From a virus (Duplodnaviria; Heunggongvirae; Uroviricota; Caudoviricetes): a stretch of DNA of 46,389 nucleotides. A program made the position numbers and the translations under genes. The notes beneath the pieces are model-generated. The model was not told the DNA's origin, ran no database searches, and saw only the letters and a list, made by a program, of their open reading frames with translations. Positions 26,992 through 40,698 of the stretch are shown here, in pieces. The stretch lies in IMG/VR virus record IMGVR_UViG_2850808358_000009; one strand, written 5' to 3'. Position 1 is the stretch's first letter. Each line of letters begins with the position of its first letter.

Positions 26992-27414
26992 TTATGCCGC
27001 CGAGCAGCTCCTACGCAAAGTCCTGATAGCCTGAGGCTTTGACTGAACCGACTGATCCATTTCGAGCACCACATCCAGCATGGCTAAGCAACCGTCAATA
27101 AATCCCTCTGCCGCCTGAAGCCTCTTCAGAACGTGGGTGTGAGATACGCCGAGCTTCTCACCCATCGCCCGCACGGGCATGGCCTGGACGTAATGCCACT
27201 CAAGGAGCGTGCACAGATACGGATCTTTTTTCTTCAGGCAGCTCATAGCGGAGTTGATGATAAGACCGTCATTGTCACTGCATTTCAGCCTTCCAGACTG
27301 CGTCGCGGGTAGCAGATTCTTAAACCCGGCTGCAACAGGAGGAAAGTAGACGCTACCACCTTCACTCGCAACCCAGCCACCCCAGCGCTCTAAAACCTGT
27401 TGAATATTACGCAT
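26992..27414 (-). CDS. Late-gene antiterminator Q (phage 82 / QuuD-like family)
   Basis: 140 aa; N-terminal MRNIQQVLERWGGW...AAGFK and LQAAEGFIDG region resemble QuuD-type Q proteins as recalled; sits upstream of the lysis and structural genes. Confidence 0.75.
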   Translation of the reverse strand: MRNIQQVLERWGGWVASEGGSVYFPPVAAGFKNLLPATQSGRLKCSDNDGLIINSAMSCLKKKDPYLCTLLEWHYVQAMPVRAMGEKLGVSHTHVLKRLQAAEGFIDGCLAMLDVVLEMDQSVQSKPQAIRTLRRSCSAA

Positions 27415-30601: not shown

Positions 30602-31230
30602 ATGAATCTTGCCAACCGAGCTAAAAAACGCAGAACAGAACTAAACTTAACTCAGGTCGAAGTTGCGAAACGAGCGGGCATTAGCCAGCAGTCGATTGAA
30701 GCTATAGAGAATGGGAAAACACTTAAACCACGCAATCTTCTTGCTTTAGCGTCAGCTCTTGAATGCGATCCTAAATGGCTACTTCTTGGGGCGATGTTGT
30801 TACAGATTTCAACTACGGAGCCCGAAGGGTGCCTGTTCTAAGCTACGTACAAGCCGGGGCTTTCACAAGCGCTGAGCTACTTCGTGAAGAAGGCGATTTC
30901 GAATACATTCTCACCACGGCTGAGCTATCAGAAAGTTCATTTGCGCTACGTATACGTGGGGATTCAATGGAACCTGAATTTAAAGAGGGGGACATCGTTA
31001 TAATTGACACTGACGTATACCCTACTCCTGGTGAATTCGTTGCGGCATGTAACGGTAGCCACGAAGCAACGTTCAAAAAATACCGCCCGGTAGGGATTGG
31101 CGCTAAAGGTGAGGAAGACTTTGAACTTGTTCCATTGAATAGTGATTACCCTATTTGTCGCTCCTGGGAAAAACCAATTAAGATCATAGGGACAATGGTA
31201 GAACATCGCATATTCCGCAGAAAAAGATAA
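30602..31230 (+). pseudogene. CI-like repressor (HTH_XRE plus S24 LexA-type peptidase domain) interrupted by a frameshift between the domains
   Basis: ORF track has the HTH part (30551..30841) and the S24 part (30775..31230) in different frames overlapping by about 66 nt; the S24 part has the GDSMEP motif. Confidence 0.7.
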
Positions 31231-34768: not shown

Positions 34769-35317
34769 ATGAAACTGAAGCTGAACAATGTTCGTCTGGC
34801 CTTCCCGTCTCTGTTTGAAGCTAAAACGGTAAACGGCGAAGGCGATCCGCGTTTCTCCGCAGTATTTTTAATGTCTCCCAAACACCCACAACTGGAAGAA
34901 ATCCGTAAAGCTATGAAGCAGGTAGCGAAGGAAAAATGGGGGGAGAAGTGGGAGTCCATTTATAACCAGCTGGAGAAAAAACTCAATCTGTGCCTGCATG
35001 ATGGTGATGAAAAAGCAGAGTATGAAGGCTTTCCCGGCAATTTCTTCCTGAACGCTGCTAACAAAGCGCGCCCAGCTGTTCTTGATCGCGATCGTTCGCC
35101 ACTAATTCAGGCTGATGGACGTCCCTATGCAGGGTGCTATGTAAACGCCGTTATCGATATCTGGGCACAGGACAATAATTTCGGTAAACGCATTAATGCC
35201 TCACTCGGCGGAGTCCAGTTCCTGCGAGACGGCGATGCATTCGCTGGCGGCGGAGTGGCAAGCGCTGACGATTTCGACGATATCAGCGAAGGTGCTGATG
35301 CTGAAGCACTAATTTAA
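34769..35317 (+). CDS. DUF2815-like protein (candidate ssDNA-binding protein)
   Basis: 182 aa with acidic C-terminal tail; position between DUF2800 and the polymerase. Confidence 0.5.
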   Translation: MKLKLNNVRLAFPSLFEAKTVNGEGDPRFSAVFLMSPKHPQLEEIRKAMKQVAKEKWGEKWESIYNQLEKKLNLCLHDGDEKAEYEGFPGNFFLNAANKARPAVLDRDRSPLIQADGRPYAGCYVNAVIDIWAQDNNFGKRINASLGGVQFLRDGDAFAGGGVASADDFDDISEGADAEALI

Positions 35318-35392
35318 CCCTTCTTCATAGACGCCCGGTTACACGCCGGGTGTTTTTGCAAAGGGGATGACAACCTTTTGCAAAAGCATACA

Positions 35393-35501
35393 TTGACATC
35401 CGCGATAACCAATGGGTATATTCCGCTTCATGGTGCTCAAAACACCTTTTCTACTAGCGGAAACCGCGCCCGTCAGTCATGCGGATTTTTTATGTCCATG
35501 A
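35393..35501 (+). promoter_or_regulatory. Promoter (TTGACA-N18-TATATT), leaderless micro-ORF and hairpin plus T6, upstream of Bro-N paralog 1
   Basis: Near-consensus sigma-70 hexamers; ATG within a few nt of the predicted start site; 23-codon ORF (about 35430..35501); GCGG-aaa-CCGC and a second small hairpin before T6. Conserved in copy 2. Confidence 0.5.
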
Positions 35502-35643
35502 TATTGAGAATTCAATGGTCGGGCGTGCGGCTAATACAACACCCTTCCGAAGGGAAATACGCCCGCCGACTAGTAGCGGTTTTGAGCGCCCGACCACCCT
35601 CTCAAAAAGGGTAAATTCAAAATATCTACTAGGGCATAAAACC

Positions 35644-36417
35644 ATGAGTACCCAACTCGTATTCAAATCCCACATTCTCGAAACGATCGAACATAACGGC
35701 AAATCTTGGTTCACCGCTGCCACTCTGGCGACCGCGCTGGAATACTCACGAACGGACTCAGTCGCTCGTATTTATGACCGTAATCGGGATGAGTTTTCAG
35801 TTGAAATGACAACGACCGTCAAATTGACGGTCGTTAGGAAAACCGGCTCCGTCCAAATGAATAACCGCATTTTCTCTCTACGCGGTGCTCACCTGGTAGC
35901 GATGTTCGCAACAACGCCAGTAGCAAAAGAATTTCGCCGTTGGGTGCTTGATCTTATAGAGAAAGAAACCGCTATTCCGCAGTCCTCCACGGTACTGGCG
36001 CCGCACAGGGAGTGTCTGCCGAAAATGGTTTACCACCACAGTAGCAAATACAACCCGTACAGAGCCTACGCATGGAACGGAGAGAAGAACGTTTACGTCG
36101 GGTGCTATCCAACCGTGGATGAGGCTGTCGCTGCGCAGAAGGACTTTTACCGGAACGGCAGCACAAAGCGTATTCAGAAAGTGCAGACAGCAATCAATGA
36201 CGCAGAGAAGGAAATGTTCATCAACAATCTCCGCGCCATCTGTCATAACTTCCGGCGCATCAATGAAATCTGGCGCTCGCAGTTAATGCCTGCCCTCGAA
36301 AAAATGGATTCGAAACTGGTTTACCAGTTGCATGATCGTTTCAGCGACAGCATGTGTGCTCTGCCGACCATAGAAGACCGCATCGGCAGATATATTCCAC
36401 CCACTTTACCTCGTTAA
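35644..36417 (+). CDS. Bro-N domain protein (antirepressor-like), paralog 1
   Basis: 258 aa; N-terminal Bro-N-like region; C-terminal two-thirds nearly identical to 39654..40430; start moved to the internal ATG. Confidence 0.65.
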   Translation: MSTQLVFKSHILETIEHNGKSWFTAATLATALEYSRTDSVARIYDRNRDEFSVEMTTTVKLTVVRKTGSVQMNNRIFSLRGAHLVAMFATTPVAKEFRRWVLDLIEKETAIPQSSTVLAPHRECLPKMVYHHSSKYNPYRAYAWNGEKNVYVGCYPTVDEAVAAQKDFYRNGSTKRIQKVQTAINDAEKEMFINNLRAICHNFRRINEIWRSQLMPALEKMDSKLVYQLHDRFSDSMCALPTIEDRIGRYIPPTLPR

Positions 36418-36483
36418 TCATTCAATCCGCCCCTGCTCAGCCAGGGGCTTTTTGTCACCGTTTAGTCCACGGAGGACACTGTC

Positions 36484-39411
36484 TTGTCTGAAAACATTCT
36501 ATGGGGCGACCTGGAAACCTATTGCGAAATCCCTATTACGAACGGTACCCATGCGTATGCCGAAGGCGTTGAAGTGATGCTGTTCGCATGGGCTATCAAC
36601 GACGGGCCCGTAAACGTGTGGGATATCACTGCCGGTGGTGGTATTCCACACGGCTTATACGAAGCAATCGCAGCCCCTGAGACCCTGCTTTATTTTCATA
36701 ACTCTCACTTCGACCGCACCGTCCTGCGTTATGCAATGCCGCGACTGGCACCGCCAGTCGAACGTTGGCGCGACACAATGGTGCAGGCGCTGGCGCACGG
36801 CCTCCCGGGGTCTCTGGGGGAACTCTGCGAAATACTCGGCGTCCCGCAAGACAAAGCGAAGGACAAAGAAGGTAAAGCGCTGATCCAGCTGTTCTGTAAG
36901 CCACGCCCGAAAAACAGCAAACTGCGTCGGGCCACCAGTAAAACCCACCCAGAAGAATGGCGGCGCTTTGTTGCTTACGCCGGGCTGGATATCGAGGCAA
37001 TGCGCGAAGTCTATAAACGTCTGCCGAAGTGGAATTATCAGGGGACAGAACTGGCGCTCTGGCATCGTGATCAGCAGATCAACGACCGGGGCGTCTGCAT
37101 GGACATTCAACTCGCGCGCGCTGCGATCGAAGCGGTAGACCAGGAGCAAAAGCGCCTGGCAAAGCGTACACAGGAAATGACTGATGGCGAAGTGCAGGCA
37201 GCCACACAACGGGACGCGTTGATTAAGCACATCGTTGAATCCTACGGTGTGGAGCTACCAGACATGCAACGCAGTACCCTGGAACGTCGTATAGCCGACC
37301 CCGATTTACCATCTGCCGTGAAAGAACTGCTGGCTATCCGCCAGCAAGCCAGTACTACCAGCACCAGTAAATACAAGGCACTGATGAAAGGCGTAAGCCA
37401 CGACGGGCGCTTACGCGGTACGCTACAGTTCTGCGGGGCGTCACGTACCGGGCGCTGGGCCGGACGGCTATTCCAGCCCCAGAATCTTCCCCGCCCTTCA
37501 CTAAAACAGGAACAAATAGACGAAGGCATCGAAGCACTGAAAGCCGGATGTGCAGACCTGCTGTTTGACAATATCATGGAACTAACCAGTTCAGCGTTAC
37601 GTGGCTGCATTATCGCGCCAACAGGTAAAAAACTGGTGGTAAGTGACTTGTCGAACATTGAAGGCCGTATGCTGGCATGGCTGGCGGGAGAAGAATGGAA
37701 ACTGAATGCATTCAGAGAGTACGACGCCGGAACGGGTCCGGACTTATATAAACTGGCGTATGCAAAAGCTTACGGAATTGAAGTTGAGCGCGTCACCAAA
37801 GACCAGCGCCAGATAGGTAAAGTGCTGGAATTGGCTTGCATAGCTCCGGATACTTTAGTGCTCACCGATAAAGGCTATAAGCCGCTTGTTAGTATTTCGG
37901 GCGCGGATTTGTTATGGGACGGAGAAGAATGGGTAAAACACGAAGGACTGATTTACAGGGGGTACAAAGCCTTAATATCACTGGACGGAGCAAAAATGAC
38001 CCCGGATCACCAGGTGCTAACCCCTACTGGATGGAAGCTGGCAAACCTTATCGCTTTAAACAAAAATACGCTTCACCAAAGCCTGGAACTTGCTTCGGAG
38101 AACTTACCGTTATCAAAGAACTGGAAAAAGTACCCGGAAAAGACCGAAGGATACTTGTCAAATGCAAATGTGGTGCAATGCCTCACACCGCAACAATCAG
38201 CAATCTCCTTAAAGGGAAAAGTACCCGATGTAACATTTGCGCAAAGAAAAAGCATAACGAGTATCGTAAAAAATTCTTATGCTATGCGGATGCTATTGCA
38301 GATGACGAAACCCGTCGCAGGCTACTTAACCGATTGTCTGCCGCAATCAGCCGTTGCCATAAACCCACCAACAGGTTGTTTCACAACTACGGCGGTCGGG
38401 GGATCTACGTTTGTCAGCTATGGCAGGAAGATAAAAGAGCTTTTTTGCTACACGTCAGGGAAATCAAAGGGTTTAATGACCCAAAGTTGGAAATGGATCG
38501 CATCGACAATAACAAAGGCTACGAACCGGGTAATATCCAGTTCGTCTCCAAAGCAGACAATAACCGCAACAGAAGAAAAATCGCAGACCTGCAAAAGCGT
38601 ATCGACGAGCTGGAGCGATGTTTACGACATTGCACATGCGGGGCCTCGAAACAGATTCACGATTAAAACCGACTCAGGACATTTAATCGTTCACAACTGC
38701 GGGTACGGTGGTGGTGTGTCGGCCTTCATCACTTTTGCACTGGTTTACAGTCTCGATCTCGACGAGCTGGCGAACGCCGCACTGCCAAACATTCCCCGCG
38801 ATGTTATCCGCGAGGCGAAAAGCTGGTACTACGAATCGGTTAAACGTAAGTCAACCTACGGCCTTTCTGAACGGGTATTTATCGCCTGCGACTCACTTAA
38901 ACGTCTCTGGCGCAGGGCGCACCCGGCGACCTGCGATTTCTGGTACGAACTGGAGCGCACCGTCCGCACTGCAATCGCCACACCGCAAAAAACATTGTAT
39001 TGCGGTTATCTTAAAATCCGCCGCGATGGCGCGTGGCTGCGCATACAGCTACCATCCGGACGCGCGGTATGCTACCCGTCTCCGGTTATCGAAAAAGGGA
39101 ATATCACCTACATGGGTGTTAACTCTTATTCGCGTAAATGGCAACGACTCAAAACCTACGGCGGAAAGCTGGTAGAGAACGTCACCCAGGCGGCCGCCCG
39201 CGACGTTCTGGCCGGAAACATGCCGCTTATCGAAGATGCCGGTTACAGCATTGTGCTGACGGTACACGATGAAATTATAAGTGAGGCCCCTGACTCACCC
39301 GATTACTCAGCAGAACATGTCAGCCAGTTACTGGCAACCGTTCCTGACTGGGCCACGAGCATTCCACTAAACGCCGGAGGATTCGAATCTTACAGATACC
39401 GGAAAGATTGA
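36484..39411 (+). CDS. Family A DNA polymerase (3'-5' exonuclease plus polymerase domains) containing an intein
   Basis: 975 aa single ORF, TTG start after a GGAGG SD; DLET exonuclease motif near the N-terminus; after removing 37837..38697 the junction reads [21 protein letters not shown], which fits PolA motif B. Confidence 0.75.
37837..38697 (+). other. Intein within polymerase motif B (Cys-initiated, ends His-Asn, next extein residue Cys)
   Basis: Starts [17 protein letters not shown] with a TPDHQVLT block-B-like motif; ends [27 protein letters not shown] followed by C; 287 codons in the polymerase frame. Confidence 0.7.
37914..38666 (+). CDS. HNH-type homing endonuclease in the -1 frame relative to the polymerase, nested inside the intein
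   Basis: Zinc-binding FGELTVIKE...CKCG...CNICAKK region and an HNH-like motif [27 protein letters not shown]. The protein-like part spans roughly 38073..38613; true start unknown. Confidence 0.6.
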
Positions 39412-39531
39412 CATCCGCGATGACCAATAGGTATATTCCGCTTCATGGTGCTGAACACACCTATACAAGCGGAAACCGCGCCCGTCAGTCATGCGGATTT
39501 TTTATGTCCATTTTCAGATATGGTCGGGTAG
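39408..39531 (+). promoter_or_regulatory. Second copy of the promoter / leaderless micro-ORF / terminator element, upstream of Bro-N paralog 2
   Basis: Same TTGACA-N18-TATATT and hairpin plus T6. The polymerase stop codon TGA lies inside the -35 hexamer. Micro-ORF about 39445..39531 (28 codons) differs from copy 1 by a frame-preserving 3-nt indel. Confidence 0.5.
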
Positions 39532-39653
39532 CGCGTATACCGAAAAACAGCCGAAAGGCTAAGGATACGGGCCGTTCTTGTATGCGGTGTTCAAGTACCT
39601 GACCGCCCTGCTGAACACAGGGATTCTGAACAAAAATACAAGGACATAAAACT

Positions 39654-40430
39654 ATGAGTACTCAACCCGTATTCAAATCCCACGTTCTCGAAACGATCGA
39701 ACACAACGGTAAGCAGTGGTTCACCGCCGCGACTTTGGCTACTGCACTGGAATATTCGCGCGGCGATAAAATCACCCAGATATACAACCGCAACTCGGAT
39801 GAGTTTACTCCTTGCATGTCAATCAACCTCAAAATGAGGTTCAACGGGATCAACAATAGCTTACGAGAAAAAGATGTGCGTATTTTCTCCCTACGCGGTG
39901 CCCACCTGGTAGCGATGTTCGCAACAACGCCGGTAGCAAAAGAATTTCGCCGTTGGGTGCTTGATCTTATAGAGAAAGAAACCGCTATTCCGCAGTCCTC
40001 CACGGTACTGGCGCCGCACAGGGAGTGTCTGCCGAAGATGGTTTACCATCACCGGAGCAAATACAACCCGTACAGAGCCTACGCATGGAACGGAGAGAAA
40101 AGCGTTTACGTAGGGTGTTATCCATCCGTGGATGAGGCTGTCGCTGCCCAGGAACGCTTCTACCGGAATGGCAGCACGAAACGCATTCAGAAAGCACAGA
40201 CCGGAATCAGTGACGCAGAAAAGGAAATGTTCATCAACAATCTCCGCGCCGTCTGTCATAACTTCCGACGTATTAATGAAATCTGGCGAGCGCAGTTAAT
40301 GCCTGCTCTCGAAAAAATGGATTCGAAACTGGTCTACAAACTGCATGACCGCTTTAACGACAGCATGTGCATTCTGCCGACCATAGAAGACCGCATCGGC
40401 AGATATATTCCACCAGAGTTACCCCGTTAA
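39654..40430 (+). CDS. Bro-N domain protein (antirepressor-like), paralog 2
   Basis: 258 aa, highly similar to 35644..36417 outside a divergent segment after the Bro-N domain. Confidence 0.65.
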   Translation: MSTQPVFKSHVLETIEHNGKQWFTAATLATALEYSRGDKITQIYNRNSDEFTPCMSINLKMRFNGINNSLREKDVRIFSLRGAHLVAMFATTPVAKEFRRWVLDLIEKETAIPQSSTVLAPHRECLPKMVYHHRSKYNPYRAYAWNGEKSVYVGCYPSVDEAVAAQERFYRNGSTKRIQKAQTGISDAEKEMFINNLRAVCHNFRRINEIWRAQLMPALEKMDSKLVYKLHDRFNDSMCILPTIEDRIGRYIPPELPR

Positions 40431-40482
40431 TCCTTCAATTCGCCCCTGCTCAGTCAGGGGCTTTTTACAGGACTCGAAAGCT

Positions 40483-40698
40483 ATGTCATTTAAATATCGG
40501 GACAGCCCACTTTATTACCGGGCTGCGAGGGAGGCCTTGCGCCTTGAGCAGTCCGGCGAATATGACCGGGCAGCGAAGGCCTGGGCAAAAGCCAACCGCG
40601 AATCACATCACGAACTGAATCAGGAATGGAGTGAACGCAGATCTGATTTTTGCCTGATGCAGAATATGCGTGAAAAGCGTAAGGCGGTCGAAGAATGA
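40483..40698 (+). CDS. Small helical protein (ANR-like)
   Basis: 71 aa ORF; family assignment tentative. Confidence 0.4.
   Translation: MSFKYRDSPLYYRAAREALRLEQSGEYDRAAKAWAKANRESHHELNQEWSERRSDFCLMQNMREKRKAVEE

Follow-up and report, generated by a model that had tools for sequence, protein, structure and literature searches.

In the immI region of P1/P7, as far as it is set out in supplement 1 of PMC2864571, the order of the elements is a1,b1 - c4 - a2,b2 - icd/ant (Citron and Schuster 1990), and the upstream sites were proposed to compete with the downstream sites for c4. In the prophage Gifsy-1, the short RNA IsrK acts in trans and switches on the translation of an antirepressor (Hershko-Shalev et al. 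2016, PMC4825925); a fraction of the transcripts continues past the IsrK terminator, and STnc1160 is a stable RNA processed from the read-through (PMC4825925). For P4, the citation in PMC4825925 gives a CI RNA that causes premature transcription termination, with the sites seqA/seqC. sRNA-Xcc1 of Xanthomonas campestris is a stable 88-nt RNA (Chen et al. 2011; PMC2996969) and figures in the literature as a virulence-linked sRNA that acts in trans, with targets predicted on the chromosome (PMC2996969, PMC12189769). In a study of the APSE phages, c4 a'/b' matches were reported in two places, the 3' end of the DNA polymerase gene and the region ahead of a BRO gene, and sRNA-Xcc1 was reported upstream of an ORF6N gene. 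In the literature searched, no paper was found that ties sRNA-Xcc1 to c4-type control or describes its upstream partner.

The locus described here lies in the window, that is, the whole 46,389-nt stretch of DNA that was analysed (IMG/VR record IMGVR_UViG_2850808358_000009). It derives from a temperate E. coli phage with a backbone about 97% identical to vB_EcoM-606R2 and its relatives, and it is identical at the Bro-N locus to a prophage of E. coli O121. An element found twice in the window, upstream of each of two Bro-N paralogs, is read here, with a probability of roughly 0.7, as the 5' portion of an RNA switch cassette that has three parts and is complete in itself, in which a short bait RNA acts against an antisense RNA and Bro-N translation is controlled.

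No Rfam family overlapping the duplicated element was found at E values up to 10 in the regions 35300-35700 and 39330-39700, and within the same regions and limit neither isrK (RF01394) nor C4 (RF01695) was matched by its covariance model; c4-a1b1 (RF03163) likewise gave no Rfam match at either element. A c4-a1b1 model of our own, built from the published alignment and run with filters off, gave no match at either element, with a control score of 51 bits. Membership of the element in isrK, c4-a1b1, C4 or another Rfam family was ruled out by these absent matches, so function can be transferred from those systems only by analogy. In the control, the E. coli Sakai prophage Sp5, isrK (75.5 bits) overlaps c4-a1b1 (50.5 bits) and is followed by C4 (66.7 bits) and then by an antirepressor gene, and IsrK is thus the a1b1 RNA plus its terminator. 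Elsewhere in the window, our model gave a weak match at 27309-27349 on the minus strand (16 bits, rough E = 0.002), which was without the first hairpin and is probably noise. The Rfam scan of the window gave two matches above threshold, both full-length and both to sRNA-Xcc1 (RF02221, gathering score 53), at 35517-35603 (70.3 bits) and 39522-39612 (65.6 bits), respectively. This membership belongs to the adjacent antisense RNA, termed X below, and lies outside the duplicated element's own coordinates.

The duplicated cassette and its features

A conserved element of about 100 bp had been reported in the preliminary description, and by pairwise alignment 98 of the 108 columns are identical between 35393-35500 and 39408-39512; the near-identical block of copy 2 ends at about 39512 and not, as had been given, at 39531. 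The duplication is real and far beyond chance. The 93 nt 5' of the two copies are only 48% identical (alignment), that is, unrelated, so the repeat starts exactly at the -35. Past the near-identical block, a lower homology runs on through the structured RNA (65%), the leader (67%) and the Bro-N genes (85% in DNA and 83% in protein), and the repeat unit is therefore a cassette of about 1.1 kb. In both copies, a T6 run lies about 55 nt 3' of an ATG, and the X RNA follows the T-run at about 25 nt and precedes the Bro-N start codon by about 40 nt. The short RNA upstream of X is termed U, and the features of the two modules are as follows.

35393..35422, + strand: promoter of module 1 (-35 TTGACA at 35393-35398, 18-nt spacer, -10 TATATT at 35417-35422; 11/12 consensus)
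About 35429-35431, + strand: predicted transcript start of module 1, placed near the ATG by analogy with IsrK
35432..35446, + strand: hairpin GGTG/CACC with a1 in its 7-nt loop (folding; site mapping)
35435-35443, + strand: a1 of copy 1, GCTCAAAAC, complementary to a' at 35579-35587
35451..35460, + strand: b1 of copy 1, CTACTAG (35451-35457), complementary to the b' loop, then the invariant CGG
35464..35491, + strand: weak terminator-like hairpin CCGCG/TGCGG of module 1 with the conserved loop CCCGTCAGTCA and T6 at 35486-35491, predicted leaky 3' end of U (folding)
35517..35603, + strand: X1, sRNA-Xcc1 family (RF02221), closing stem 35517-35525 with 35587-35595, ACCC tail
35570-35576, + strand: b' of copy 1, CTAGTAG, terminal loop of X
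35579-35587, + strand: a' of copy 1, GTTTTGAGC, 3' junction of X
35597..35646, + strand: leader of Bro-N 1, hairpin CCCT/AGGG presenting a2, Shine-Dalgarno AGGG, ATG at 35644
35601-35607, + strand: a2 of copy 1, CTCAAAA, in the leader hairpin loop
35617-35622, + strand: second a-like site of leader 1, TCAAAA
35626-35632, + strand: b2 of copy 1, CTACTAG, overlapping the Shine-Dalgarno AGGG
35644..36417, + strand: Bro-N paralog 1, 257 aa, putative regulated gene (PF02498, 44.7 bits)
39408..39437, + strand: promoter of module 2 (-35 at 39408-39413, -10 at 39432-39437)
39447..39503, + strand: short RNA U2 of module 2 (hairpin GGTG/CACC, a1, b1 with CGG, terminator-like hairpin 39476-39496, T6 39498-39503)
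39452-39458, + strand: a1 of copy 2, TGAACAC, loop of the GGTG/CACC hairpin
39463-39469, + strand: b1 of copy 2, ATACAAG
39522..39612, + strand: X2, sRNA-Xcc1 family (RF02221)
39577-39583, + strand: b' of copy 2, CTTGTAT, terminal loop of X
39587-39593, + strand: a' of copy 2, GTGTTCA, 3' junction of X
39606..39656, + strand: leader of Bro-N 2, hairpin CCCTG/CAGGG presenting a2, Shine-Dalgarno AAGGA, ATG at 39654
39612-39618, + strand: a2 of copy 2, TGAACAC, in the leader hairpin loop
39627-39632, + strand: second a-like site of leader 2
39636-39642, + strand: b2 of copy 2, ATACAAG, overlapping the Shine-Dalgarno AAGGA
39654..40430, + strand: Bro-N paralog 2, 258 aa, 83% identical to paralog 1 (Bro-N domain)

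Several parts of the preliminary description were borne out. The near-consensus TTGACA-N18-TATATT hexamers (35393-35422 and 39408-39437, promoter scan) are the only sites with at least 11 of 12 matches to the sigma-70 consensus on either strand of the 46-kb window; the ATG stands 7 nt after each -10 (35430 and 39445, respectively), close to the predicted start; the small hairpins and the T6 runs are present; and the TGA of the DNA polymerase gene (39409-39411; ORF 36484-39411) lies inside the -35 hexamer of module 2. Module 1 is preceded by a hairpin and T-run (35320-35384) that close the operon of the ssDNA-binding protein, and a weak STnc310-like match (E = 0.05) was seen on the minus strand of the same interval. 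Module 2 is without such an insulator hairpin upstream, because the polymerase gene ends inside its -35. A search of the window for an operator shared by the promoter spacer gave nothing beyond chance 12-mers, and no control by a C1-type repressor was found in it.

Domain search identified the neighbours of the cassettes as a family A DNA polymerase, an Enc34-type ssDNA-binding protein and an S24/LexA-type repressor (30775-31230), and the Bro-N genes themselves are antirepressor-like. Both Bro-N cassettes (35393-36480 and 39408-40493 of the window) are missing from vB_EcoM-606R2, 611R5 and 689R2, and the slots of these relatives hold other genes, one of which, placed behind the polymerase, has a TIR-like domain; the behaviour of the cassettes is that of exchangeable morons. 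GC-rich hairpins just past each Bro-N stop (36429-36448 and 40442-40461), which are also partial matches of the a1b1 model, are probably terminators closing each cassette. In the RefSeq annotation of the identical prophage, the BRO-N CDS starts at an ATG that takes in the 5'-terminal base of the Xcc1-type RNA (window 35515-35643; L196 5623-5751). The CDS has thus been drawn across the RNA gene, with no ncRNA annotated, which is an annotation error; the equivalent ATG of copy 2 (39520) meets a stop after 3 codons, so the N-terminal extension is not conserved.

Covariation of the three sites and survey of related loci

The 10 columns that differ between the copies are distributed over the promoter spacer (2), one hairpin loop (2) and the word that follows (6, as a 3-nt indel and 3 substitutions), so that 8 of the 10 sit within two short words, a1 in the hairpin loop and b1. 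These words are complementary to two unpaired segments of the adjacent X, and the same words are found again at the Bro-N ribosome-binding site as a2 and b2. In the whole window, CTACTAG occurs only as b1 and b2, with its complement at b', and composite a..b sites are confined to the two modules. The preliminary description had counted only a frame-preserving indel with one synonymous and one conservative change, and had taken these as a sign of selection on a peptide. That count falls short of the 10 columns, the ORFs end differently (after 23 and 28 codons, respectively), and what looked frame-preserving is the pair of words a1/b1, whose sequences vary together with the loop and junction of X and with the ribosome-binding site of Bro-N.

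Scanning viral contigs for the pattern yielded 21 unique modules. Homologues were found between antirepressor genes of Stx phages, and distant examples in Acinetobacter phage 4316 (upstream of a KilA-N gene) and in E. coli phage Rac-SA53 (upstream of an ant gene), which together with seven E. coli-type classes make up nine specificity classes. In 9/9 classes, U and the leader each contain the b' loop in reverse complement, with a match of 7 nt at both sites in 7 classes and of 6 nt at one site (Acinetobacter) or at both (Rac-SA53), compared with mostly 2-4 nt for non-cognate b' matches; a' has its matching a1 and a2 in the nine classes as well. The duplex energies of cognate and non-cognate pairs were -32.5 and -24.2 kcal/mol for U-X and -22.5 and -17.0 kcal/mol for leader-X, respectively, the cognate duplexes being about 6-8 kcal/mol better (permutation p ~5e-5). 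Where modules are 91-94% identical, their differences are coordinated at the three sites, as when CG is replaced by GC in b1, b' and b2 alike. Across the nine phage classes the three sites vary in concert, a pattern that points to selection on RNA-RNA pairing. As the two cassettes of the window differ in both words, independent (heteroimmune) switches are predicted for the two Bro-N paralogs.

The upstream element is a conserved RNA in itself, with its promoter / hairpin / terminator architecture kept. Among the matches listed, TTGAC stands at a fixed distance, with a median of 42 nt 5' of a1, in 53 of 66 related loci, and the distance is the same here; among those from diverse loci, a stem of at least 3 bp encloses a1 in 89% and a hairpin adjoining the T-run is found about 27 nt 3' of b1. 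When a MAFFT alignment of U was submitted to RNAalifold, only an invariant CGG:CCG pair was recovered, because the stems are out of register in the alignment; for this reason, a named structure was used to test the terminator helix, and the first hairpin was tested by parsing each sequence. In 54 sequences among the matches listed, 74.7% of the cells of the terminator stem were paired, compared with 27-45% in slid controls. The covariation score of the stem, measured on an alignment not fitted to the structure, was 0.279, compared with 0.045-0.137 in slid controls, and was reached by 0 of 500 shuffles. The stem occurs in 23 variants, in 60 of 66 loci among the matches listed. The terminator loop of the diverse loci is 8-13 nt long and starts with the conserved YCCGNNA (consensus YCCGNNAR).

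In the window, folding gives a weak terminator-like hairpin of 4-5 bp with an 11-nt loop. No call was made for the hairpin before the T-run in either copy by a simple terminator scan of the plus strand, since the loop is too long; a weak, long-looped hairpin that is missed by the scan fits a leaky terminator. A CGG follows b1 directly (35458-35460; 39470-39472) and a CCG starts the terminator loop (35470-35472; 39482-39484). These invariant triplets may take part in a pseudoknot or an antiterminator, may be bound by a protein, or may pair with the 5' strand of X, which is conserved.

The end of the T-run with the next 6 nt, UUUUAUGUCC, is complementary to the Shine-Dalgarno region of Bro-N (GGGCAUAAAA / GGACAUAAAA). 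The pairings, 35488-35497 with 35632-35641 and 39500-39509 with 39642-39651, are of 10 bp and form a long-range helix that encloses X in the predicted fold, and one-sided changes in relatives preserve the pairing through wobble. A general anti-Shine-Dalgarno pairing of the sequence after the T-run was rejected, with no cognate-specific signal in 42 diverse loci (p = 0.44), and the 10-bp complementarity is only an unexplained local feature of the E. coli-type modules.

For a survey of diverse bacteria, the conserved Xcc1 core was searched with one genome per species, and at least 120 loci were obtained; among the matches listed are loci from Pseudomonas, Xanthomonas, Neisseria, Haemophilus, Bartonella, Azospirillum, Desulfovibrio and MAGs outside Proteobacteria. 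In the same listed matches, the cognate a1+b1 was found at most 260 nt upstream in 73, and the cognate a2+b2 at most 130 nt downstream in 52, of 77 distinct (b', a') classes. Also among the matches listed, 46 of 51 loci have an SD-like triplet in contact with b2, the sites of U are longer than those of the leader (26 versus 7; Wilcoxon p = 0.001), and all 10 of the downstream genes sampled were Phage_pRha, ORF6N, Bro-N, P22_AR_N or KilA-N.

Loci of Xanthomonas and Rhodanobacter (L076, L080, L082, L108 and others) hold a bait RNA and an Xcc1 RNA and mostly have no a2/b2 within 130 nt downstream. In the literature, symE is placed downstream in a Xanthomonas integron cassette, so the target in Xanthomonadaceae may be a toxin mRNA or lie further away. 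At one locus (L162, 5310-5500 and 7157-7350), two modules about 1.8 kb apart share the same a site and have different b sites, and five tandem Xcc1 homologues have been described in Xylella; multi-module arrays with distinct specificities recur.

It is about an even chance that the upstream element represents a widespread RNA family not in Rfam, the obligatory partner of sRNA-Xcc1 RNAs in many bacterial phyla. sRNA-Xcc1 would then supply the antisense RNA of a programmable switch with three sites (the bait in U, X itself and the ribosome-binding site of the mRNA). Dozens of natural orthogonal specificities of this switch would exist, its targets would be phage antirepressors and perhaps also the toxin SymE of integron cassettes, and CGG/CCG may make the terminator of U responsive to X. 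If this is true, sRNA-Xcc1 is not a Xanthomonas virulence sRNA. On the main reading, sRNA-Xcc1 appears as the antisense arm of a c4/IsrK-like switch, with partner and target readable from the sequence, and an unannotated, strongly conserved phage element is given a concrete proposed role in controlling, at the RNA level, genes of the antirepressor type, on which prophage induction and the cross-talk between prophages depend. The natural matched triplets a1b1 / a'b' / a2b2, with two modules predicted to be orthogonal in one phage, offer ready-made orthogonal RNA regulators and a clean system for the evolution of specificity via coordinated changes at three sites.

Proposed switch and alternative readings

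In the switch proposed here, the strong sigma-70 promoter would start a short RNA, U, of about 60 nt, which would display a1 in a hairpin loop and b1 as a single strand and would end at the weak hairpin and U6 terminator. Polymerases that read through would make the tRNA-like antisense RNA X and then the Bro-N mRNA. X, which by analogy may be released from the read-through transcript through processing, would pair by its terminal loop b' and 3' junction a' with a1/b1 in U and with a2/b2 in the leader. By analogy with P1/P7 c4 and Gifsy-1 IsrK, X on a2/b2, with b2 over the Shine-Dalgarno, would be expected to block the translation of Bro-N. U has a slightly better match to X than the leader has and would be produced in excess upon firing of the promoter; it would titrate X so that Bro-N is made, and the balance between the output of U and the stable pool of X would decide Bro-N synthesis. 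The start site, the efficiency of termination, the processing of X and the direction of regulation at the locus would likewise be as analogy suggests. The two modules would be orthogonal, with no cross-talk expected, as the word differences and the duplex energies suggest.

A serious, if rather unlikely, alternative or additional role is feedback control of the synthesis of X and of Bro-N mRNA. U would then be mainly an X-responsive transcription attenuator, similar to P4 CI-seqA/seqC, in which X on nascent a1/b1 refolds CGG...CCG and sets termination, with the decoy function secondary. A pure decoy role leaves the invariant CGG/CCG of U unexplained: in 54 diverse homologues among the matches listed, the terminator stem is free to covary, yet the two triplets are at least 90% invariant, and b1 directly abuts the CGG. 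The pairing of CGG with CCG by RNAalifold also speaks for attenuation, although this pair, being invariant, is without covariation. In E. coli-type U, folding gives competing pairings, GCGG-AAA-CCGC against the CCGCG/TGCGG hairpin, with no tie to any conserved codons. The same idea was raised for STnc1160 by the authors of the IsrK study, in which co-expression of STnc1160 nevertheless left the effect of IsrK unreduced (PMC4825925).

It is improbable that a1/b1 act in cis only, as a folding or processing guide in the read-through precursor that keeps a'/b' covered up to the excision of X, the short RNA having no role in trans. Such a guide would suit the arrangement of U and X, always on one transcript and 20-110 nt apart among the matches listed, as well as the Gifsy-1 long transcript, which is inactive via IsrK-orf45 pairing (PMC4825925). 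However, in the minimum-energy fold of the whole leader no U-X pairing in cis was found in either copy, the predicted folds holding U and X apart, and cis pairing of U with X was rejected on this ground. In addition, the conserved terminator and U-run straight after b1 (68 of 76 loci among the matches listed) argue for a discrete short RNA, and action in trans has been shown for IsrK.

The element had also been proposed to encode a leaderless micro-peptide, or a leader peptide steering a downstream attenuator and Bro-N expression, and this is hardly tenable: the ATG stands 7 nt after the -10 in 21/21 E. coli-type elements, the ORF is open for 23 and 28 codons in the window copies and the indel is of 3 nt, but the variable codons are exactly the a1/b1 words covarying with their RNA partners, the ORF is without a run of regulatory codons, and the comparison of ORFs among homologues ruled the peptide out. 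In 23 related elements, the ORF has 6, 8, 23, 28, 29, 61 or 67 codons, one frameshift, or no ATG: it stops at codon 7 in Nil2/P13374 and at codon 9 in the L011 type, is frameshifted internally in L004 and is read through to 61-67 codons in other homologues, and the Acinetobacter and Rac-SA53 homologues have no ATG, yet keep a1, b1 and the terminator. Of the control element for Bro-N that the preliminary description had envisaged, the promoter-proximal regulatory unit with its promoter, terminator-like hairpin and U-run stands, and the peptide does not.

Comparison with known systems

The element has the isrK-type features of its own promoter, a (weak) 3' hairpin with U-run, and a place directly upstream of an antisense RNA and an antirepressor-type gene, and, as in c4-a1b1, it presents a1 in a hairpin loop with b1 following closely on the 3' side, each of them complementary to the antisense RNA that lies downstream. 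The C4-like features of X, judged from the structure line of the RF02221 alignment, folds and target mapping, are a closing stem with an NCC tail, two inner hairpins, a recognition loop with a single-stranded junction, and targets at ribosome-binding sites. The 5' end of P1 c4, an RNase P substrate, is made by RNase P, and the closing stem of X with its ACCC/GCCC tail appears similar.

With the Gifsy-1 isrK locus (IsrK, orf45/STnc1160, anrP), the cassette shares a short promoter-proximal RNA with a leaky Rho-independent terminator (predicted here), read-through into a structured RNA and then an antirepressor-type gene, and the complementarity of the short RNA to the structured RNA; the -10 and the 5' end CTATATTCC of isrK systems are shared by the Stx-phage versions of the element. 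It differs in that U has one hairpin before b1 whereas isrK has two, in that the partner RNA is of the sRNA-Xcc1 type and not of the C4 type, and in that b2 lies on the Bro-N ribosome-binding site itself, with no conserved upstream ORF for translational coupling.

With P1/P7 immI, as far as supplement 1 of PMC2864571 describes it, the cassette shares an antisense RNA from the target's own transcript, two recognition segments with sites upstream and downstream, a downstream site at a ribosome-binding site, an antirepressor-type controlled gene, and specificity alleles with compensatory changes, as in the heteroimmunity of P1 and P7. In contrast to immI within the same description, the target here is the Bro-N ribosome-binding site directly and not an icd-like ORF. 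The C4 and c4-a1b1 models miss the locus, yet match the Sakai control; a1 lies in the second of two hairpins in c4-a1b1 and in the only hairpin of U here; and control via a C1-type repressor was not found in the operator search of the window.

P4 CI, to the extent that it is cited in PMC4825925, is likewise a processed antisense RNA flanked by upstream and downstream complementary sites on one transcript; unlike the termination caused by P4 CI, the downstream site here covers the Shine-Dalgarno, which makes translational control the simplest reading. As for sRNA-Xcc1, X is a bona fide member and U lies outside the family. The c4/IsrK-like switch layout is known from P1/P7 and Gifsy-1, and the version built here on an RNA of the sRNA-Xcc1 family appears, from its sequence, to be a new variant of it.
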